Assembly: GCA_016220145.1 (NCBI GenBank)
Contig: JACRID010000060.1
Coordinates: forward strand, 742 to 24,741
From: Candidatus Peregrinibacteria bacterium
GTDB taxonomy: Bacteria > Patescibacteriota > Gracilibacteria > UBA1369 > UM-FILTER-53-11
Reading direction: 5' to 3'
DNA length: 24,000 bases
The position numbers and the translations under genes are program-made. Of this stretch, positions 64-18,948 are shown piece after piece. Below the pieces are notes generated by a model. That model was not told the origin of the DNA. It saw only the letters and a program-made list of their open reading frames with translations, and made no database searches. Positions within the stretch are counted from its first letter, which is position 1. Every line of letters begins with the position of its first letter.

Positions 64-1314
64 TTGTTCATAAAATTGCGCGATTTAACGGCCGTCATGG
101 CGGCCGCCGTTAAGCCAAAACTGATGCATTATATGGGAGATCTTGTGAAAATCCGCCGCAATGGTGAAATTAAGATCAACACCAATGGTTTGCATAAATT
201 CTTGAACGGGACATCCAGTTTCTCAATCGCCATTGACAATAGCCGCTCTCAACGAGTCGTAATTTTTGACGTTGGCTATGCATATTTTTTAATCGAACTT
301 GAACGCGCCCTTTGTCGTGAGACCTACGATGTGCTTTTGGAGAAATATCCCGACCCCATCGTGAGAGAAGCCATTGTCTGTCGGTTGTTCGCGGAGCAAG
401 CACCTGACCCCATTTTGGAAAGCGGCCAGTCCAGTTACGCCGTGTACCTTCTTGCCTTGCATCGCTACCGCACTTCTTTTAAAGATCATGCCTGCCATTT
501 TGCGCAACTTTTTACGTTGCCGCCCCAACAGCCCGGTGAGACCGGTGACGCCGATATTCTGCGTGAAATTCGAGAATTATCCATGTTTCGCACGATAGAT
601 TTTTCCGCTCACGTCGATGGGTGCACCATAAAATTTGCACCGATGGTTAAATATGATGAGGAGGATTCTCATTTTCAACGCCCATTTTCAATATGCATTG
701 CGATGATCGAGGCCGATTCGGCGGAAAAAGATAAACCCGGAGCCCGTTTGGCCGGCATGATAAATCGGCTTACCGGAGACTTTGACATTGGAAGCGGCGA
801 AGATTTGGCCAATCTTACCAATAAAGACACAGCCCTTCACGTCAAGAGGGTGCTTTACCGGCTTATTTTGGACCACCTAAGAAATATGCCTGAAGACATT
901 GCTCGCTCGGCACCCACGCTTAAGCCGCAAAAAATTGCGGAGGAGACGCGTGATGCCGCCGAACAGGTTGTGGCTGATGATACGGAGATAGCGGCGGAAA
1001 CGGAAACTGAGACGGTGATCGTGGCGGAAGAAGTGGAGATACCGACTCCGGAAAGCCCACGGTGCGCGGTTGCAAAGCCGACCGCAACAATCGCCAATCT
1101 TCGCGGAGTACCCGGCAGCCGCATCAAAGGCGCTCTCGACATTTTACTTGGTCCGCCCCTTCGCGTCAGCGGCAGCCATCACGTATACAGAACGCGCCAA
1201 GGTGGAACGTACCCGATCCCCCTCCATGGAACTGACGAGGTTGGCACCGGCATACTCAATAAATGTCTGCGTGAATTCGGAATAACTCCCGCGGAATTGC
1301 GCGGGTGTCTTTAA
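64..1314 (+). CDS. Hypothetical protein with C-terminal HicA-like (YcfA family) domain; N-terminal region of unknown function
   Basis: Long frame-1 ORF. Possible starts are TTG at 64 (AGAGG 8 nt upstream) or ATG at 97. The frame stays open back to nt 1, so the true start may lie outside the window. The last ~65 aa (nt ~1105-1311: RVSGSHHVYRTRQGGTYPIPLHGTDEVGTGILNKCLREFGITPAEL) fit the HicA pattern GSHH...P-x-H-G...G-T-x-x-x-x-L-x-x-x-G-I. An acidic E/T/A-rich linker spans nt ~940-1060. I recognise no motif in the first ~280 aa. Confidence 0.6.
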   Translation: MFIKLRDLTAVMAAAVKPKLMHYMGDLVKIRRNGEIKINTNGLHKFLNGTSSFSIAIDNSRSQRVVIFDVGYAYFLIELERALCRETYDVLLEKYPDPIVREAIVCRLFAEQAPDPILESGQSSYAVYLLALHRYRTSFKDHACHFAQLFTLPPQQPGETGDADILREIRELSMFRTIDFSAHVDGCTIKFAPMVKYDEEDSHFQRPFSICIAMIEADSAEKDKPGARLAGMINRLTGDFDIGSGEDLANLTNKDTALHVKRVLYRLILDHLRNMPEDIARSAPTLKPQKIAEETRDAAEQVVADDTEIAAETETETVIVAEEVEIPTPESPRCAVAKPTATIANLRGVPGSRIKGALDILLGPPLRVSGSHHVYRTRQGGTYPIPLHGTDEVGTGILNKCLREFGITPAELRGCL

Positions 1315-1369
1315 AAATTCTCGATAGCGACAATGTCACCATGCACTCCATTTTTGTTCGATTTAGATT

Positions 1370-2425
1370 ATGAGAAGCGGTTCAGATACAAAACGTGAAC
1401 TTGGAGAATCTTTTAAAAAGATTCTTGATTCCGCCTCTGCGAAAGGGGCTATTCGTCCAATCAAGAAGGTCCATAAACTGCTTTATGATGCCGCGGGCGG
1501 CAGAACGCCATATTCCGACAAGGATTCAACTCAACTGAAGAGCGGACTGGCCGTATCCCCGAGCGGCGCGGCGGCTTGCCTGCTTGATTACGAACGAACA
1601 CGGCAATTTGTGCGCGGTTTAAATATGGCCATCACCGAAGCGCGCAAACACTTTCATGATGAGGTTATTCAGGTTTTATATGCGGGCTGCGGTCCGTTTG
1701 CTCCCCTGGCGATTGCGCAATGTTGGACTTTTTCCCCTGACAAAGTTCAGTTTACGTTGCTGGATATTCATGAAACATCGGTGGATATTGCGCGAGCAAT
1801 TGTCCAATCTTTTGACCTGAAAAGGCACTGCCCGAGAATAATAAAGGCCGACGCCACTAAATATAAATGCCAAGGCGCAAGGCCACACATCGTCGTCACG
1901 GAGACCATGATGTCGACATTGATGTATGAACCGCAAGCGGCAATAACGGCAAATTTGGCTCCCGAAATGCGTCACGGCGGGATTTTTGTGCCGGAAGAAG
2001 TGGCCCTGGACGCTTACATTGAGGAACCTCCCGAGTCGGGCCATCTTGATGGACCAAAACGGCCCTTGGGTCTGGTTTTTCGCCTGACAAAAGATACCCG
2101 TCCGAATGCAAAAATTAAGTCTGAATTTGCTCTTCCTGCAGTAAAATCCAAAAAAGGATTTGAGAACCTGCTGATCTCGACGCGCGTGCGCGTGTTCGGG
2201 AACATCGCCATTGAACCCGATACTGCGGAAATAACAAAATCTCTTTTTGTCACATCATTTGACAGGGAAGACGAAGGTTCGCTTGTTGCCATGGAATATG
2301 TTCCGGGGGATACTTTTTTGAAATATGTGATGCAAGGCGACGGACCATTTAAGGAGACCCGCCTCGCATTCCCCGCCGTCAGGTCGGAATTCACGGAAGG
2401 CCAGCTGTCCTTTCGACCAAAATAA
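1370..2425 (+). CDS. Putative class I SAM-dependent methyltransferase with PRMT-like double-E loop
   Basis: 351-aa ORF with ATG start, 55 nt after the previous stop. Glycine-rich motif-I-like VLYAGCGPFAPLA (nt ~1673-1711) is followed by an acidic post-I residue (FTLLDIHE). TETMMSTLMYE (E at 1901-1903 and 1928-1930) has the E-x8-E spacing and the M/L/Y positions of the PRMT double-E loop SEWMGYCLFYE. A ~135-aa C-terminal domain follows the Rossmann-type core, as in PRMTs. Confidence 0.6.
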   Translation: MRSGSDTKRELGESFKKILDSASAKGAIRPIKKVHKLLYDAAGGRTPYSDKDSTQLKSGLAVSPSGAAACLLDYERTRQFVRGLNMAITEARKHFHDEVIQVLYAGCGPFAPLAIAQCWTFSPDKVQFTLLDIHETSVDIARAIVQSFDLKRHCPRIIKADATKYKCQGARPHIVVTETMMSTLMYEPQAAITANLAPEMRHGGIFVPEEVALDAYIEEPPESGHLDGPKRPLGLVFRLTKDTRPNAKIKSEFALPAVKSKKGFENLLISTRVRVFGNIAIEPDTAEITKSLFVTSFDREDEGSLVAMEYVPGDTFLKYVMQGDGPFKETRLAFPAVRSEFTEGQLSFRPK

Positions 2426-2429
2426 TCTT

Positions 2430-3055
2430 ATGAACACACCTTTTCGACAAGAATTGCGGGAATCCATGCACGGCATTATGGACAGCCGCGATATCCATAG
2501 TGTCCCTTACGCAATGGCGACCCTTAAAATTTGCGGGCAAATGGCGCCGTCCAAGCCGAAACCCGAATGGATACATTCCACCGTGACGCCGGCGGGTCGT
2601 GCGATATCTCCCGCGGACGCGGCTCAGTGTTTACGAGATTGCGAGCGCACATATCATTTTGCGCACGGATTAAAAGACGCCATCAAGGAGGCGCAAAACC
2701 GTTTTCGAGGAGAAGTCATCCGTGTGTTTTATGCCGGTTGCGGGCCGTTTGCTCCGCTGGCATTAACTCAAACCGCCGTATTTTCGCCGGACGAAATCAA
2801 ATTTACGGCTCTGGATATCCATCATTATTCAGTTGAGCTTGCTCGTTCCATCGCCGAAGCACGAATGCAGTTATTGAATCCGACGCGGCATATATAACCG
2901 CGCCGCTTATGGTCACGTCGTTTATTGCGGAACATGCTGCGGGTTGCCGAATAAGGTTAATGTATAAACCCGGAGACGCCTGTTTAAAATACGCAACGAG
3001 AGGAAGCAACGGGCCTTGGGGGAAGACATGTGAGGTATGCCCTCGTGAAACCTAA
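2430..3055 (+). pseudogene. Decayed tandem paralog of the upstream methyltransferase-like gene (frameshift plus internal deletion)
   Basis: The frame-3 ORF 2430-2897 aligns to residues ~55-145 of the 1370-2425 product: AISPADAAQCLRDCERTYHFAHGLKDAIKEAQNRFRGEVIRVFYAGCGPFAPLALTQTAVFSPDEIKFTALDIHHYSVELARSIAEA versus AVSPSGAAACLLDYERTRQFVRGLNMAITEARKHFHDEVIQVLYAGCGPFAPLAIAQCWTFSPDKVQFTLLDIHETSVDIARAIVQS. Homology then continues in frame 2: NAVIESDAAYI ~ PRIIKADATKY. It jumps directly to LMVTSFIAEHAAGCRIRLMYKPGDACLKYATRGSNGPWGKT ~ LFVTSFDREDEGSLVAMEYVPGDTFLKYVMQGDGPFKET, ending at TAA 3053-3055. About 120 codons are missing, including the double-E loop. Confidence 0.75.
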
Positions 3056-3056
3056 C

Positions 3057-6000
3057 TTACTTTTGCGCTTCCAGCTTGCTTTTATCCACTTTTTCGCCGA
3101 GCAGAAGGATGCACTCGCGCAGTTCGTCAAACCAGTTCAGGCCCAAATATTCAATGGCGATTCTCATTTTGCTTCCGCTGATTTGCCAGCGCGGATTGTG
3201 CTGCAGCATGTAAACGATACTTTCCGGTTTCACCTTTTTGCCCATAAACAAAACAATATGTTTGCCGGTTTGCATGTGGATGTTTTCCGCCTTAACGACA
3301 GTTAATCCCGCCTTTTTGGCAAGAATTTTGAGCTCGATCACGCGGAATAAATTGGAAACTTCGCGCGGCAATTTTCCAAAATCTTCAACGACGTCGTCTT
3401 TAAGTTCATCCAAATATTGCGAACTGTCGGCCGCCGCCATTCTCTGATAAATATTAATTTTCTCCTTGGAATTAACAATATAGTCGTCCGGAATGTATGC
3501 CGTGAGCGGTAATTCAATTGCCACCTCCGGTTCCTCTGCGGCTTCTTCGGTAAATCTGCCTGCCTGCAAATCTTCAACCGCCTTATTCAACATGCGAATA
3601 AAATGACTTACGCCGACCACGTTGATGACCCCGTGTTGGTTGACGCCCAAAATGTCACCGGCTCCGCGAATTTCCAAATCCTTCATAGCAATTTGGAATC
3701 CGGAACCAAGCTCGGAGGCCTCCACAATCGCACGCAAACGCTTTTTGGCATCAAGGCGCAATCGCTGAGAGTGGTGCAAAAAGTATGCATACGCCTGAGT
3801 TTTTGAACGCCCAACGCGACCGCGCAATTGATAAAGCTGAGCCAGTCCGAATTTTTCCGCGTTATTCACAATCAAAGTATTTGCGTTTGCCAAGTCGATT
3901 CCATTTTCAATAATTGTCGAGCTCACCAGTACGTCGAATTTGTGATCCTTGAAGTCCAAAATGCGCTCCTCCAAATCCTTGCTGAGCAGCTTGCCGTGCG
4001 CCACGCAAAATCGCGCTTCCGGAATCAAGGCCTTTAATCTTTCCGCGATCGCATCGATCGTCTGCACGCGGTTGTGTAGAAAATAAACCTGTCCGCCGCG
4101 CCTTATCTCGCGCAAAATCGCCTCGCGAATAAGTTCGTGAGAATATTTTCTAACCTCCGTGATCACCGGCAAACGTCCCGGCGGCGGAGTTGTAATCGTG
4201 GAAATATCGCGCAATTTATTAAGGCAAATATTCAGCGTTCGCGGAATCGGCGTCGCCGTCAGCGTCAAAATATCCACCTCCGTGCGCAGCTTTTTAAACC
4301 GCTCTTTTTGCTTCACGCCAAACCTTTGCTCCTCGTCAATAACCACGAGCCCAAGGTCTTTAAACTTAATGTCTTTCTGCAAAAGCCTGTGAGTTCCGAC
4401 CACAATGTCGATTTCGCCCTTCCCAAGTTTATCCAAAATCACGCGCTGCTCGCGCTGCGAGCGGAAGCGCGACAGCATCTCCACGCGCACATTGAACGGC
4501 TCCATTCTTTTCACAAAAGAGCGATAATGCTGATCGGCCAAAATCGTGATCGGCGAAATGAGCGCGACCTGTTTTTTGCTTGCCACGGCCTTAAACGCCG
4601 CACGCATGGCGACTTCCGTTTTGCCAAAACCCACGTCGCCGCAAATCAACCTGTCCATCGGTTCCGCCTTTTCCATGTCCTGTTTCACGTCGGCAATCGC
4701 CTTTATTTGCCCCGGCGTTTCCTGATACGGGAAAGTTTTTTCAAATTTAACCTGTTCCAGGTCATCCTGATCAAAACCGAGTCCGTGCGCCTGTTTTCTC
4801 TTGGCGTATAATTCCAAGAGTTCGCGCGCGATCTGTTCCGTTTCCTTGCGGACGCGTTTCGTCATCGTGGCCCATTCCGCGGAACCGAGCCTCGTCAGCT
4901 TCGGCGCTTCTTCTTCCGCACCGACAAACTTATTCACCTTATCCGCCTGGTCGATCGGCACGAAAAGTTTGTCGTTTTCGGCATATCCCAGCTTCATGTA
5001 TTCGCGGGTAATGCCGTCCACCATGCGTTTTTCGAGCCCCTCAAACCTCGCGATTCCATGATTTATGTGCACAACCAAATCGTCCTGTTTCAATGTCGTC
5101 AAAAATTCCCAAAACACGCGTTCGGCGACTTTTTTATGTTTTTCCTCGTATAAATTCGCAATTTCCTTATCGGCGATGACCAAAATTTTCCCGTCGCTGC
5201 ACTGAAAAGAATGCGGCGCCACCTCCTCTTTTTCAAGATCAACGATGCGCACTGTGGATTTCTGAAAATCCACGCCGTCCTCAAAGATCGCATCTCCATC
5301 CCCAAAATTCATCTTTCTGTCTTTTAAAAGTTCCCGAATCGCCGGCCCGTGTTTTGTGAAATAAATCGCCCGCCAATTTTGCAGCGATTTCTCCTTCAGT
5401 TCGTTGGCCAAATCCATCAAGTCCTGATATTTCAAAACCGAAAGATAGCGCAAATTCCGGTGAAACGGCTCGTCCTCGGGAAAAGACGTAAACGTAATGA
5501 GCCGCGTTTCCTTTGAACGCTTTGCAAAAACGTCGTCCCACGCCTCGTAAAATTCGTCCGTCACATCCAGTTCGTCGTCCACAATCAAACCGCCATCCGG
5601 CATGAATTGGAAGAAATTCTGCCCTTTAAACTCCACGTTGATCGGGTATACGAAGGTGCTTTTTACGTGTTGAATCACGTCTCCGCTGTCCTGGCTGTAT
5701 TCAAAAATATCCGACACGCGGTCAAATTCAAACTCTATGCGCACCGGCGAATCGGCATTTACGGGGAACACGTTCAAAACACCTCCTTTGCCCAAATACG
5801 TGCCCCTTTCCAGGTATTCATCTTTTGAAACTTCGTATCCCGCGGCAATCAGTTTTTCAAAAATTTCCACATTGGAAATGGCTTCGTTAAGCTGAATTTT
5901 TATGGTCCTGCGTTTTAAATCTTCAACATCGGGAACTTCTTTCATCAGGGCCGAATATGGAGCCACTATAATTTGCCGATTTTCTTCCACCAAAAATTTC

Positions 6001-11537: not shown

Positions 11538-13070
11538 TCACACTTCCTCCCTTACTTCACTAGGCTCCGTCTTTCTTAAGAGGCTCCACATATCCTTCGA
11601 AACAGCTTTTGTTAGCAACATGCACGCCACGAAAACGATTCCGCCGATCGGCATTAAGATAAACAGGCTCTTCGTGAAAAGCAGTTTGTTGAAGTAGTCG
11701 GTGATGGAATTCAAAACAATTCCCATCACAAGCGCCGAAAACGCAGTCTTCGCCAAGAACGGCAAGTCCCAAATCCCACGGATTCTTTTCTTCGTGCGTA
11801 TAAAAAGGCACGCGAGCATCGTTAATTCCGAGGCCGCCGCAGAAATCGATGCGCCAATAAATCCATACCGTGGTGCCAAAAATAAATTTAATCCGACATT
11901 AACGATTACCGTAATCCCATTAATCCACAAAAGCTCCACCTGTCGCCCCATTGCAACCAACGTGTAGCTTAGCGCAACGTGAATATAAGTGAACGTCATT
12001 GCCACCAGCAAAATTTTAAGCGCCAAATCGGAACCCCAAATAAAGCCGGTTGCTGTGCGTTCCGTCAAAAAGTCTGGGCTGCTCACCGCGGCCGTTATTG
12101 GCCACGCCAAAACGTAACCGCCAACCATGATAGGTATAGCCATTGCCGCCAATGCGTCAATTGAATAGCGAACAATGCGGCCGGTCTTTTCATTAATACT
12201 GTCGAGGCTTATCGTCAAAAGCGGCAAAACCGAATTCATAAAATAATGCGGAAGAATTTGCAGAATTTCCAAAAAGCGCATTGGTACGCCATAATATCCA
12301 ATCTGCTCTTTCATCTCAAATAAGGACAACATGACAGTGCCCATGCGGAAATAAATGGTGCCGAGAACCAGTGCGGTTCCATACGGCAGTGCCTTCACTA
12401 AAACTTCTTTCCAAAATTTGAAATCAAATTGAAAAGAAATTGGTATTAATTTTGTAGACGCCGCGTACGTCGTGACGACATTGATCAACCCGCCGCCGAT
12501 CCAGCCCAAAAGCAAATGAGGAAAGCCAGCGACCGGGTCGTTCGGATACAGATACAATATGGTTGCCAAAATGTAGCCGACAGTAAATATTTTACTGATT
12601 AAAATTGAGATTGATGCCCATTTCATGCGCAAATGGAACTGCAAAACCGACGACATTGTGCCGGCAATTAAGGTAAAAACCGTGGCGATGGAAACCAACA
12701 AAATGCCAAATGGAATATGGCTGCCGCGGTATGCGGGCATCACGGCCGCAATGAGTGCGCCAATCCCCAAAGCAAATATCGCCAGTCCGGTGCGCATGGA
12801 CAAAACATTCCCGACGATTTTTTGGATGGCGGATTTTTCATTCGAATGCGCCATCTCGCGCACGGCGATTGTAAACAAGCCAAAATCCGCGATTATCGCG
12901 AACATGGCGGTGTAGTCATAAATGGTCGTATATTCGCCATAAGTGCTTTTGGTCAGGTAGTTGGTGATGAATTTTACGCTGACTATTCCAAGGACCGCGG
13001 TTACAACCTTTCCTATAACTTGCCACGCGGTATTCGAAAGAATTTTTCTGGCTTGCGACATCTTCCCCAT
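11538..13070 (-). CDS. MOP-superfamily lipid-linked oligosaccharide flippase (Wzx/MurJ-like polysaccharide biosynthesis protein)
   Basis: 510 aa and strongly hydrophobic throughout, with roughly 12-14 predicted TM segments. The N-terminus ILSNTAWQVIGKVVTAVLGIVSVKFITNYL...YGEYTTIY resembles Wzx/Polysacc_synt proteins. Its position beside murD is compatible with lipid II export. Confidence 0.7.
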   Translation of the reverse strand: MGKMSQARKILSNTAWQVIGKVVTAVLGIVSVKFITNYLTKSTYGEYTTIYDYTAMFAIIADFGLFTIAVREMAHSNEKSAIQKIVGNVLSMRTGLAIFALGIGALIAAVMPAYRGSHIPFGILLVSIATVFTLIAGTMSSVLQFHLRMKWASISILISKIFTVGYILATILYLYPNDPVAGFPHLLLGWIGGGLINVVTTYAASTKLIPISFQFDFKFWKEVLVKALPYGTALVLGTIYFRMGTVMLSLFEMKEQIGYYGVPMRFLEILQILPHYFMNSVLPLLTISLDSINEKTGRIVRYSIDALAAMAIPIMVGGYVLAWPITAAVSSPDFLTERTATGFIWGSDLALKILLVAMTFTYIHVALSYTLVAMGRQVELLWINGITVIVNVGLNLFLAPRYGFIGASISAAASELTMLACLFIRTKKRIRGIWDLPFLAKTAFSALVMGIVLNSITDYFNKLLFTKSLFILMPIGGIVFVACMLLTKAVSKDMWSLLRKTEPSEVREEV

Positions 13071-13184
13071 TTTAGCGCATTTCCTGTATCCTACACACGA
13101 GCAAAGCGAGTGTGCTTCGTTCTTTCGTCCCCGTTAGGGCGTTCGGGAGGGGGACGGAGAGTGGCTGCGCTCCATAAAATCACC

Positions 13185-14288
13185 ATGCAAGAACTGAAGC
13201 CTAAACTTGAAGAACTTAATCGCCTGATTCTGCGCGGGCTGGATTGTCTTGATGTTCCCAGGCTGAAAAAACGCATTGGGGAACTGGAAGAAATCACCAG
13301 CGCGCCGGAATTTTGGAGCAATCAAAGGCATGCAAAAGAAATTGGTCAGGAGTTGAAGCATCTGCAGGTTTTGGTGAAAGATTGGGAGGATTCAAAACGC
13401 GATGTTGATGAGCTTTCGGCCATGTTGCCGACGATTCACCCTGAAGATGATCCAAAGGCGGCGGAGGAATTTCGCGGAATGGTGGCGGAGTTGGGACATC
13501 GTTTTGAGAGGTTAAATCGCGAATCTTTCTTCTCTAGCAAATATGACAAAAATAACGTGATTATTTTGATTCACGCGGGAACGGGAGGAAAAGACGCCCA
13601 GGATTGGGCCCAGATGCTGATGCGAATGTATGTAAGATATGCGGAAAGGCGCGGCTACGGTGTGGAAATTTTGGACGAGTCATATGGCGAAGAAGTCGGC
13701 ATGAAAAGCGCCACAATTTTGATCTCGGGAATATATGCATATGGCTATTTGAAGGGAGAAAAGGGCGTTCACAGATTGGTGCGCCTCTCACCATTTAATG
13801 CGAAAAATTCGCGCGAAACCTCGTTTTCGTTGGTGGAAGTGATGCCGGAAGTGCCGGAAGCGATCGATATAACGATAAAATCGGAAGAGTTACAGCTGGA
13901 TGCCTTTAGAGCCGGCGGAAAGGGAGGACAAAATGTGAATAAGGTAAGTTCGGCGGTTCGGCTTACTCATCTCCCGACGGGAATTGTTGTGACTTGCCAG
14001 AGCGAAAGGTCGCAGATCCAAAACCGCGAACAGGCGATGACGATTTTGCAATCGAAACTTGCTCAACTGCAGGACGAAAAGAAACTTGAGGAAATGAAGG
14101 AGTTGAAGGGCAAACGCGTGGAAATGTCATGGGGAAATCAAATTCGCTCGTATGTTTTGCATCCGTATACGATGGTAAAAGATCACCGGACGGATTATGA
14201 AACTTCCCAGACGGCAAAGGTATTAGATGGCGACCTGGACGGTTTTATAGAAGCCGAAATTGAGTGGGCGGCGCGTTCTAAACAATAG
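13185..14288 (+). CDS. prfB: Peptide chain release factor 2 (no programmed frameshift)
   Basis: It carries the RF2-specific SPF motif (RLVRLSPFNAKNSRETSF) and the GGQ motif (AGGKGGQNVNKVSSAVRLTHLPTGIVV). The N-terminus MQELKPKLEELNRLILRGLDCLD aligns with the RF2 start. The tracked ORF begins at 12717, but ATG 13185 gives a normal 367-aa RF2. The usual CTT TGA C shift site is replaced by in-frame CTT GAT G (13248-13254). Confidence 0.93.
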   Translation: MQELKPKLEELNRLILRGLDCLDVPRLKKRIGELEEITSAPEFWSNQRHAKEIGQELKHLQVLVKDWEDSKRDVDELSAMLPTIHPEDDPKAAEEFRGMVAELGHRFERLNRESFFSSKYDKNNVIILIHAGTGGKDAQDWAQMLMRMYVRYAERRGYGVEILDESYGEEVGMKSATILISGIYAYGYLKGEKGVHRLVRLSPFNAKNSRETSFSLVEVMPEVPEAIDITIKSEELQLDAFRAGGKGGQNVNKVSSAVRLTHLPTGIVVTCQSERSQIQNREQAMTILQSKLAQLQDEKKLEEMKELKGKRVEMSWGNQIRSYVLHPYTMVKDHRTDYETSQTAKVLDGDLDGFIEAEIEWAARSKQ

Positions 14289-18303: not shown

Positions 18304-18948
18304 ATGCATATTGATGTTTTGCCATCTCAACAACGGAATCTGGCCAAGCTCATTGGAAACTGGCCGCCAGCAAAAGATTTTTATCTTGCCGGAGGAACAG
18401 CTTTGACTTTGCAGATAGGTCACCGCCGGTCCGCGGATTTTGATTTTTTTTCCAAGAAAGCCTTTTCCGCAGAGAAATTATTGGAAAATATTGAGGATTA
18501 TTTCAAGATGCCGGTTCGGGTTTTACAGATAGATAATCATACTTTGACGATTTTACTGAAAGACGTACGCGTAAGTTTTTTTGGCGCTTATGGGTTTCCC
18601 CTGATCGGTAAGCTTTTGCGCGACTTTTATTTCCCGGTCGCATCTGCGGAAGATATTTTCGCCATGAAACTGCTTGCAATTCAACACCGTACCGAAATGA
18701 AAGATTACGTCGATATTTTGGCTCTAATTGAGCAATCCGGGATAAATTTGCAAAAAGGGATTAGTTTGGCCCAAAAGAAATTTAGCGCATCTTTTAACTC
18801 CATGATTTCCCTTAAAGCATTGGTTTATTTTGACGATTTGGATTCGCGCGAACTATTCGCAATCGCCTTTGTAGGGAAAAAATCGCCTATCAATTTTAAA
18901 TTGCTGAAACAAAAGCTCATCTCAGAGGTTAGGTCTGTTCAAATATAA
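18304..18948 (+). CDS. AbiEii/AbiGii-family nucleotidyltransferase (type IV toxin-antitoxin toxin-like)
   Basis: The N-terminal motif FYLAGGTALTLQIGHRRSADFDFF matches the GGTAL...HR-x-S-x-D-x-D-F signature of the AbiEii (DUF1814) family. The later KDYVDILAL matches its KD-x-x-D segment. Confidence 0.65.
   Translation: MHIDVLPSQQRNLAKLIGNWPPAKDFYLAGGTALTLQIGHRRSADFDFFSKKAFSAEKLLENIEDYFKMPVRVLQIDNHTLTILLKDVRVSFFGAYGFPLIGKLLRDFYFPVASAEDIFAMKLLAIQHRTEMKDYVDILALIEQSGINLQKGISLAQKKFSASFNSMISLKALVYFDDLDSRELFAIAFVGKKSPINFKLLKQKLISEVRSVQI

Follow-up and report, generated by a model that had tools for sequence, protein, structure and literature searches.

In the literature, protein arginine methyltransferases (PRMTs) figure as enzymes of eukaryotes (e.g., PMC13639276). 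Here, we analyze a bacterial gene at positions 1370 to 2425 of a 24,000-nucleotide window (the whole stretch of DNA analyzed, from contig JACRID010000060.1 of a Candidatus Peregrinibacteria bacterium), whose 351-residue product, P0001, had been presented in a preliminary description of the sequence as a methyltransferase-like protein with a PRMT-style double-E loop. The described proteins closest to P0001 and its homologs are PRMTs, foremost the N-terminal module of C. elegans PRMT7 (PDB 3WST) and also PRMT1, PRMT6, CARM1, and PRMT5. PRMTs supply the best matches of the family in both sequence and structure, and no others are significant. PRMT7 and PRMT9 are pseudo-dimers in which two modules are joined by dimerization arms. 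Among bacterial enzymes, PrmA, the ribosomal protein L11 lysine methyltransferase (PF06325), is a protein N-methyltransferase with a PRMT-related Rossmann core, and PF06325 also matches PRMT1. PrmA has an N-terminal substrate-recognition domain but neither a C-terminal beta domain nor a double-E loop; its acceptors are lysine and the N-terminal amine. Bacteria also possess SznE/StzE, which carries out the S-adenosylmethionine (SAM)-dependent guanidino N-methylation of free L-arginine in streptozotocin biosynthesis (PMC11705231). Our analysis indicates that the catalytic core of P0001 is very probably of the PRMT type, with two glutamates in the PRMT double-E position. This assignment is made because the family profile matches PRMTs in the PDB, the best structural matches of the predicted model are all PRMTs, and the E-x8-E motif is present in 238 of the 238 family proteins in which its position could be assessed.

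P0001 and its family share with PRMTs the same order of core elements: an LDxxRT helix pair, motif I, an acidic post-I residue, a double-E loop after beta-4, a GG(I/L)xxP(D/E) turn, and a C-terminal beta domain of similar size. The gene and its elements are located in the window as follows.

1370 to 2425, + strand: PRMT-fold SAM-dependent methyltransferase gene (P0001), so assigned from 106 homologs, an AlphaFold2 (AF2) model, Foldseek, and a PDB profile match; ATG start, 351 amino acids.
1379 to 1492, + strand: N-terminal helical hairpin, family specific, residues 4 to 41 (DSSP helices H4-20 and H24-41; predicted local distance difference test score [pLDDT] 87 to 98).
1577 to 1609, + strand: CLLDYERTRQF, residues 70 to 80, equivalent of the PRMT "MLxDxxRTxxY" helix, aligned to PRMT7 "ILDFDRNDKF".
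1673 to 1711, + strand: motif I, VLYAGCGPFAPLA, residues 102 to 114, the glycine-rich SAM-binding loop, aligned to PRMT "VLDIGCGTG".
1763 to 1765, + strand: D132, acidic post-I residue ending beta-2 ("TLLDIH" strand in the alignment; strand E126-132 in the model).
1898 to 1930, + strand: double-E loop TETMMSTLMYE, residues 177 to 187, aligned residue for residue with PRMT SEWMGYFLLYES.
1982 to 2374, + strand: C-terminal all-beta domain, residues ~205 to 335, nine strands and no helical arm (AF2 models of the full chain and of the isolated domain).

The open reading frame (ORF), motif I, and TETMMSTLMYE, as well as the 55-nucleotide gap and the HicA domain upstream of the gene, are all present as the preliminary description gave them. 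The CLLDYERTRQF helix is a third PRMT-type element, which that description overlooked.

A homolog search with P0001 returned 106 proteins, all of which are named “hypothetical” and very few of which have a Pfam domain. The family alignment built from 59 of them, here called A1, is the source of our profile and of the conservation calls. Invariant in A1 are G59, A67, C70 and R76 of the CLLDYERTRQF helix, G106, G108, and P109 of the motif I core VLYAGCGPF, A162, E178, L184, and E187, and, in the C-terminal beta domain, P208 and T271. Near-invariant positions are D73, T77, and F80 of the same helix, D161, Y165, M180, P188, Q189, and, again in the C-terminal domain, T289 and Y310. The SAM motifs are all intact in P0001. 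Three features of PRMTs are thus present: a class I Rossmann fold whose glycine-rich motif I is accompanied by the acidic D132, a double-E loop after beta-4 with both glutamates invariant, and an N-terminal helix of the “MLxDxxRT” type with R76 invariant.

The double-E motif requires care, as its bare spacing is uninformative. E-x8-E occurs four times in P0001 and is found in 81% of shuffled sequences, while the fuller pattern E-x-M-x3-L-x2-E appears in only 0.3% of shuffles. The weight of the motif comes instead from its position and conservation. In the AF2 model, it lies immediately after beta-4 of the Rossmann fold. A wider check covered 252 family proteins, and in every one of the 238 with a recognizable motif I, E-x8-E is found at the expected distance from it. 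The Met at +2 from the first Glu (M180) is present in 195 of these 238 proteins and the Leu at +6 (L184) in 209. The loop therefore agrees with that of PRMTs in its identical E-x8-E spacing and in its Met and Leu positions, as first described, and E178 and E187 are invariant and aligned with the PRMT glutamates. The Tyr position that had also been listed as shared does not hold for the family, in which Y186 is not conserved and is usually replaced by Lys.

Comparisons with PRMTs at the level of the whole protein agree with the motif evidence. As a single sequence, P0001 found a sole match in the PDB, C. elegans PRMT7, at an E value of 0.19. The A1 profile matched the same chain (3WST) at an E value of 2.5e-7 and PRMT1-type chains (6CU3 and 8DUR) at about 0.04 to 0.05; of the 11 PDB matches at E values up to 10, 7 are PRMT chains, the top three included. 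The alignment between A1 and PRMT7 spans the LDxxRT helix, motif I, the double-E loop, and the GG-x-x-P-E/D turn, pairing “ilDiaRtrkF” with “ILDFDRNDKF,” “ivvtEtmqraLekEpq” with “IIISEWMGYFLLYESM,” and “GGiliPee” with “GGYLFPDK.” An hhalign comparison of the family with an alignment of PRMT1 and PRMT8 likewise places motif I and both glutamates in register (E = 5.5e-4), at a probability of 30% with a PRMT alignment that is shallow. In addition, 2 of the 59 members touch the Pfam family PF05185 (PRMT5), with a best E value of 5e-5.

The AF2 model of P0001, built from A1, was predicted with high confidence, at a pLDDT of 90.6 and a predicted template modeling score (pTM) of 0.90. It places helices at residues 4 to 41, a beta hairpin, two helices at residues 64 to 94, a Rossmann domain at residues 100 to 207, an all-beta domain at residues 210 to 331, and a disordered tail. 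When the full model was compared with the PDB by Foldseek, the best 50 matches were all PRMTs (PRMT7, PRMT5, CARM1, and PRMT6), with E values of 9.5e-13 to 3.6e-10, 311 to 385 alignment columns (most 334 to 375), and TM-scores (TMq) of 0.48 to 0.58. By the terms of the preliminary description, best matches to a small-molecule methyltransferase family outside the PRMTs would have told against its reading; the best profile and structure matches are PRMTs.

Despite this agreement in the core, P0001 departs from canonical PRMTs in several respects. The family is bacterial and has the motif I sequence AGCGPF in place of VGxGxG. It also has an extra N-terminal helical hairpin and a beta hairpin containing the invariant G59. 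The helical hairpin (residues 4 to 41) is conserved in the family alignment and lies outside every PRMT alignment, with no PRMT counterpart there. The helical dimerization arm is absent: both AF2 models have an 11-residue linker between strands 210 to 218 and 230 to 239, and the family alignment contains only short, variable inserts at the arm site. PrmA is set apart from the family as well, as none of the 59 members matches PF06325 at E values up to 1. The same is true of PF22528, the PRMT C-terminal domain, for which no member has a match at this threshold; true PRMT1 and PRMT8 carry both domains in a Pfam scan.

A number of observations count against placing P0001 among arginine methyltransferases on a PRMT scaffold. 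Pfam and NCBIfam scans of P0001 gave no assignment above threshold, the best being Methyltransf_25 at an E value of 0.1, and a Pfam scan of all 59 members found only sub-threshold generic methyltransferase models. The 30% hhalign probability against the PRMT1 and PRMT8 alignment marks the sequence likeness as remote. The YFxxY motif is missing from the family consensus upstream of the LDxxRT helix, where a beta hairpin, “LPxGxAISP,” is found instead. The THW loop is reduced to a single conserved Thr, T289 (at least 90% conserved), which stands in a T-x-P context in most members; the equivalent site, assigned by the order of secondary structure, reads ESGxTxP in the family consensus and ITKS in P0001. 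The invariant Cys70 occupies the place of Met48 in PRMT1. Because THW is reduced, YFxxY is absent, and Cys stands for Met48, the substrate chemistry could differ from that of PRMTs. The C-terminal domain adds to these points. When residues 205 to 335 were modeled in isolation (pLDDT 89.7, nine strands), a Foldseek search of the PDB found no PRMT barrel and nothing significant, the best match being an Hsp70 substrate-binding domain at an E value of 0.039. The whole-chain TM-score of about 0.55 is thus carried mostly by the N-terminal two-thirds of the protein.

The same search means that homology of the C-terminal domain to the PRMT barrel is not independently confirmed. The preliminary description had reported a C-terminal domain of about 135 residues, as in PRMTs, and a beta domain of the right size (about 125 to 135 residues) and position is indeed present; its likeness to PRMTs is borne out neither by the isolated model nor by a Pfam match to the PRMT C-terminal domain. 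Set beside the PRMT1 structure, the position, size, and strand order of the domain would fit an arm-less barrel. Profile-profile comparison does not reach this region, since the alignment to PRMT1 and PRMT8 ends at the first strand of the C-terminal domain. Comparison with the single PRMT1 sequence was weak (probability 11%). The homolog search with PRMT1 gave only relatives at 70% identity or more, which leaves the PRMT profile too shallow for a decisive profile-profile test. Sequence and model together place P0001 outside the canonical PRMTs, and the most fitting description is that of a divergent bacterial variant of the PRMT kind without the arm.

A profile search of 1.84 billion cluster representatives (50% clustering) matched 2,138 proteins at E values up to 1e-3 and 1,322 clusters at E values up to 1e-30. 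With one genome per GTDB species, the family is present in at least 585 loci, or species, from more than 10 phyla. These include Acidobacteriota, Bacteroidota, Verrucomicrobiota, Planctomycetota, Gemmatimonadota, Chloroflexota, Gammaproteobacteria, Bacillota, Spirochaetota, Myxococcota, and the candidate phyla radiation (CPR) lineages Peregrinibacteria, Gracilibacteria, and Peribacteria. Cultured carriers include Pedobacter and Aquimarina, and RefSeq and UniRef name the cultured members “class I SAM-dependent methyltransferase” or “hypothetical protein.” A rough neighbor-joining tree joins P0001 with P0002 and P0003 and places the CPR members beside this group. A literature search, made in a limited collection, found no description of a bacterial PRMT-like family. 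As judged by these profile matches, PRMT-like proteins of the present type are common in bacteria but unrecognized, and the rarity first supposed for such enzymes does not extend to this family.

The genomic neighborhoods of the family, reconstructed by clustering the ORFs of the related loci that we retrieved, contain several recurrent partners. Phage Tail Collar genes (PF07484, E = 2.8e-28) are located within 5 kb of the methyltransferase gene in 22 of 78 cases (~28%), usually as triplets and in several phyla; the loci include L037, L049, L050, L051, L055, L057, L061, L076, L079, L085, and L086. Other recurrent companions encode a formyltransferase (seven loci), a PhyH dioxygenase (six loci), a GNAT acetyltransferase (five loci), DUF6916, and an AMP-binding enzyme. 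Homologs of the collar, PhyH, GNAT, formyltransferase, and DUF6916 genes were searched for in the window, and none was found. A search of the same limited literature collection for the tail-collar gene cluster also found no description. Some family members are fused to these activities: P0102, P0103, P0169, P0211, P0214, and P0216 carry a C-terminal GNAT domain and P0206 a C-terminal PhyH domain, the same activities that are encoded separately beside other members. P0110 has an N-terminal DUF1801. Two kinds of activity would suit these partner genes: modification of proteins, for which the collar proteins are candidate substrates, or the tailoring of small molecules. In four loci of the Pyrinomonadaceae, a group of Acidobacteriota (L011, L018, L022, and L048), DUF72 and Methyltransf_11 genes precede the methyltransferase gene, and genes for RsbR-like, STAS, RsbW-like kinase, and PP2C phosphatase proteins of the stressosome or partner-switching type follow it, an arrangement that may represent lineage-specific synteny.

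Duplication is a further recurrent property of the family, and one that the window shares.

2430 to 3028, + strand: degraded tandem paralog of P0001 (tblastn, frames +1 and +3).

An ORF at positions 2430 to 2897 (155 amino acids) begins four nucleotides past the P0001 stop and matches P0001 residues 8 to 147 at 44% identity (E = 9e-35). The match resumes in another frame at positions 2864 to 3028, corresponding to P0001 residues 278 to 330 (E = 1e-9). The tandem copy has lost about 130 codons, a stretch that takes in the double-E loop and most of the beta domain, and it also carries a frameshift; from its sequence, it is probably a pseudogene. Two adjacent copies, intact unlike the pair in the window, are found at L010, L051, L055, and L066, sometimes flanking a PhyH gene, and P0107 (719 amino acids) is a tandem of two modules that keeps E-x8-E in both. 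The gene downstream of P0003 was also checked as a candidate paralog and is not one. The two modules of P0107, the adjacent copies at several loci, and the decayed second copy in the window recall the pseudo-dimeric PRMT7 and PRMT9, with the differences that the family has no arms and that the second copy in the window is probably nonfunctional.

Beyond the core assignment, we think it somewhat probable that P0001 actively methylates a nitrogen in a SAM-dependent reaction, as a member of a large, unannotated bacterial family with a PRMT scaffold. We infer the residue roles, the guanidino specificity, and the choice between protein and metabolite by analogy with PRMTs. The scaffold would comprise the “LDxxRT” helix pair, the Rossmann SAM domain, the double-E loop after beta-4, the “GG-I-x-x-P-E” turn, and the C-terminal beta domain. 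SAM would be held by motif I (G106 and G108), by D132 at the ribose hydroxyls, by D161 and A162 at the adenine edge, and by R76 at the carboxylate; the role of R76 is presumably that of R54 in PRMT1, and that of D132 is assumed from class I methyltransferases. E178 and E187 would then hold and polarize a guanidinium group, setting up one of its nitrogens for attack on the methyl of SAM. Following the PRMT mechanism, a guanidino nitrogen is on balance the acceptor that we expect. The likeliest substrate would be the side chain of a protein- or peptide-bound arginine, followed by a free guanidino compound, and we rate a protein arginine in particular, as opposed to a metabolite, at somewhat below even odds. 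Since the dimerization arm is missing, a monomer or another mode of pairing would be expected, the latter being hinted at by the two-module fusions, the adjacent paralogs at other loci, and the decayed second copy here.

A PRMT-like core could instead serve a small-molecule guanidino or amine N-methyltransferase acting in a tailoring pathway on free L-arginine, agmatine, or another metabolite, for which SznE/StzE, compared here by reaction only, provides a functional model and shows that a bacterial free-arginine guanidino methyltransferase exists (PMC11705231). The fusions to GNAT (P0102, P0169, P0211, P0214, and P0216) and PhyH (P0206) and the PhyH, formyltransferase, GNAT, AMP-binding, and second methyltransferase genes that neighbor the family elsewhere are equally typical of small-molecule tailoring, which counts against a protein substrate, and the missing arm and divergent C-terminal domain remove parts that PRMTs use for protein substrates. 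SznE/StzE lies in a dedicated biosynthetic cluster. Against a small-molecule role, no biosynthetic cluster is found in the window, where the neighbors include Mfd, DnaN, RNase J, and MurD. The closest relatives and the CPR relatives also lie among housekeeping genes: two of the three CPR members, from Gracilibacteria (L052) and Peribacteria (L054), are flanked by a CCA-adding enzyme gene and a gene for an RlmD-like rRNA methyltransferase, and the gene adjoining P0005 encodes ATP synthase gamma. The third CPR member, from Peregrinibacteria (L046), follows a NiFe-hydrogenase gene. Moreover, the strongest conserved neighbors across the family are proteins, the tail-collar triplets, which could themselves be substrates. 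We regard a metabolite substrate as somewhat unlikely. It is improbable, in our judgment, that P0001 is a generic class I methyltransferase for RNA, DNA, lipid, or another protein residue, with its PRMT likeness due to shared fold ancestry alone. The sub-threshold, generic Pfam matches, a weak PADLOC match to the MADS mad2 methyltransferase (E = 6.5e-5), the tRNA and rRNA enzymes adjoining the CPR relatives, the unrecognizable C-terminal barrel, and the absence of YFxxY and of the His and Trp of THW would all suit such an enzyme. Set against them are the two glutamates, invariant in the exact PRMT register along with a conserved Met and Leu, the conserved LDxxRT helix, and the 50 best structural matches, which are all PRMTs and contain no RNA or DNA methyltransferases.

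The gene upstream of P0001 suggests another role, which the preliminary description had proposed.

1 to 1314, + strand: 3' part of the gene for a 523-residue orphan protein with a C-terminal HicA_toxin domain (Pfam E = 3.5e-6); the gene begins 257 nucleotides left of the window and is given as context only, with no shown link.
1288 to 1305, + strand: weak terminator-like site where the upstream gene ends, formed by a GC-rich hairpin (6-bp stem) with TGTCTTTAAA after it.

P0001 would here be the partner of this HicA fusion in a toxin-antitoxin or defense module, methylating the HicA protein or its RNA target. Typical HicA toxins have about 60 residues; the fusion, whose full gene is located at positions 1513 to 3084 of L006 (a longer contig of the same locus), encodes 523, and its first ~470 residues match no Pfam family. 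The two genes lie on the same strand with a gap of 55 nucleotides between the stop of the fusion (position 1314) and the ATG of P0001, no promoter-like match is found in this gap, and AbiEii toxin genes are nearby. Promoter and terminator counts across positions 1000 to 3200 are near the shuffled expectation and thus uninformative. On the other side, a terminator-like hairpin closes the upstream gene. The fusion has no detectable homolog in a collection of 5.8 billion proteins, a search whose sensitivity is doubtful as the self-hit was also missing, and tblastn found none in the 89 other family-carrying loci, closest relatives included. The neighbors of these closest relatives, P0002 to P0005, are unrelated to the fusion; P0003, for example, adjoins a shikimate dehydrogenase gene and P0002 an opposite-strand gene of 669 amino acids. 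PADLOC and PHROGs gave no meaningful match for P0001, PADLOC returning only a weak generic methyltransferase. We consider a HicA partnership highly improbable. With 0 of 89 other loci carrying a homolog of the fusion, the functional link first proposed finds no echo in synteny; on this comparison, the P0001 gene appears independent of the upstream gene, and a conserved functional link is not supported. On cotranscription of the two genes, the sequence points both ways, with the short gap and lack of a promoter match on one side and the weak terminator-like hairpin on the other.

The remainder of the window is housekeeping bacterial DNA, with genes for Mfd, DnaN, RNase J, MurD, a release factor, deformylase, and FemAB. 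No HicB-like antitoxin gene is evident beside the HicA-fusion gene. Two genes for nucleotidyltransferase toxins of the AbiEii type (type IV toxin-antitoxin or abortive infection) are present, one left of the window (positions 53 to 664 of L006) and one within it (positions 18304 to 18948, + strand). The release-factor ORF (positions 12717 to 14288, + strand, 523 amino acids) has its PCRF domain from residue 183 and overlaps a polysaccharide-biosynthesis ORF (positions 11538 to 13070, - strand) by about 350 nucleotides; the true start of the release factor is probably further downstream than listed.

Returning to P0001 as a methyltransferase on a PRMT scaffold, the most far-reaching interpretation is that the family represents the dedicated protein arginine methyltransferase long missing from bacteria, a probably monomeric sister lineage or precursor of eukaryotic PRMTs that lacks the arm and would modify co-encoded tail-collar proteins in about a quarter of its carriers and a housekeeping protein in reduced genomes such as the present one. 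We regard this full interpretation as unlikely. The family nevertheless supplies a specific enzyme that can be cloned as a candidate for the poorly understood methylation of arginine or guanidino groups in bacteria, and its conserved tail-collar neighborhood points to a testable substrate. Mechanistic studies would gain from it a PRMT core that naturally lacks the arm, and the family could serve as an outgroup when the origin of eukaryotic PRMTs is traced.

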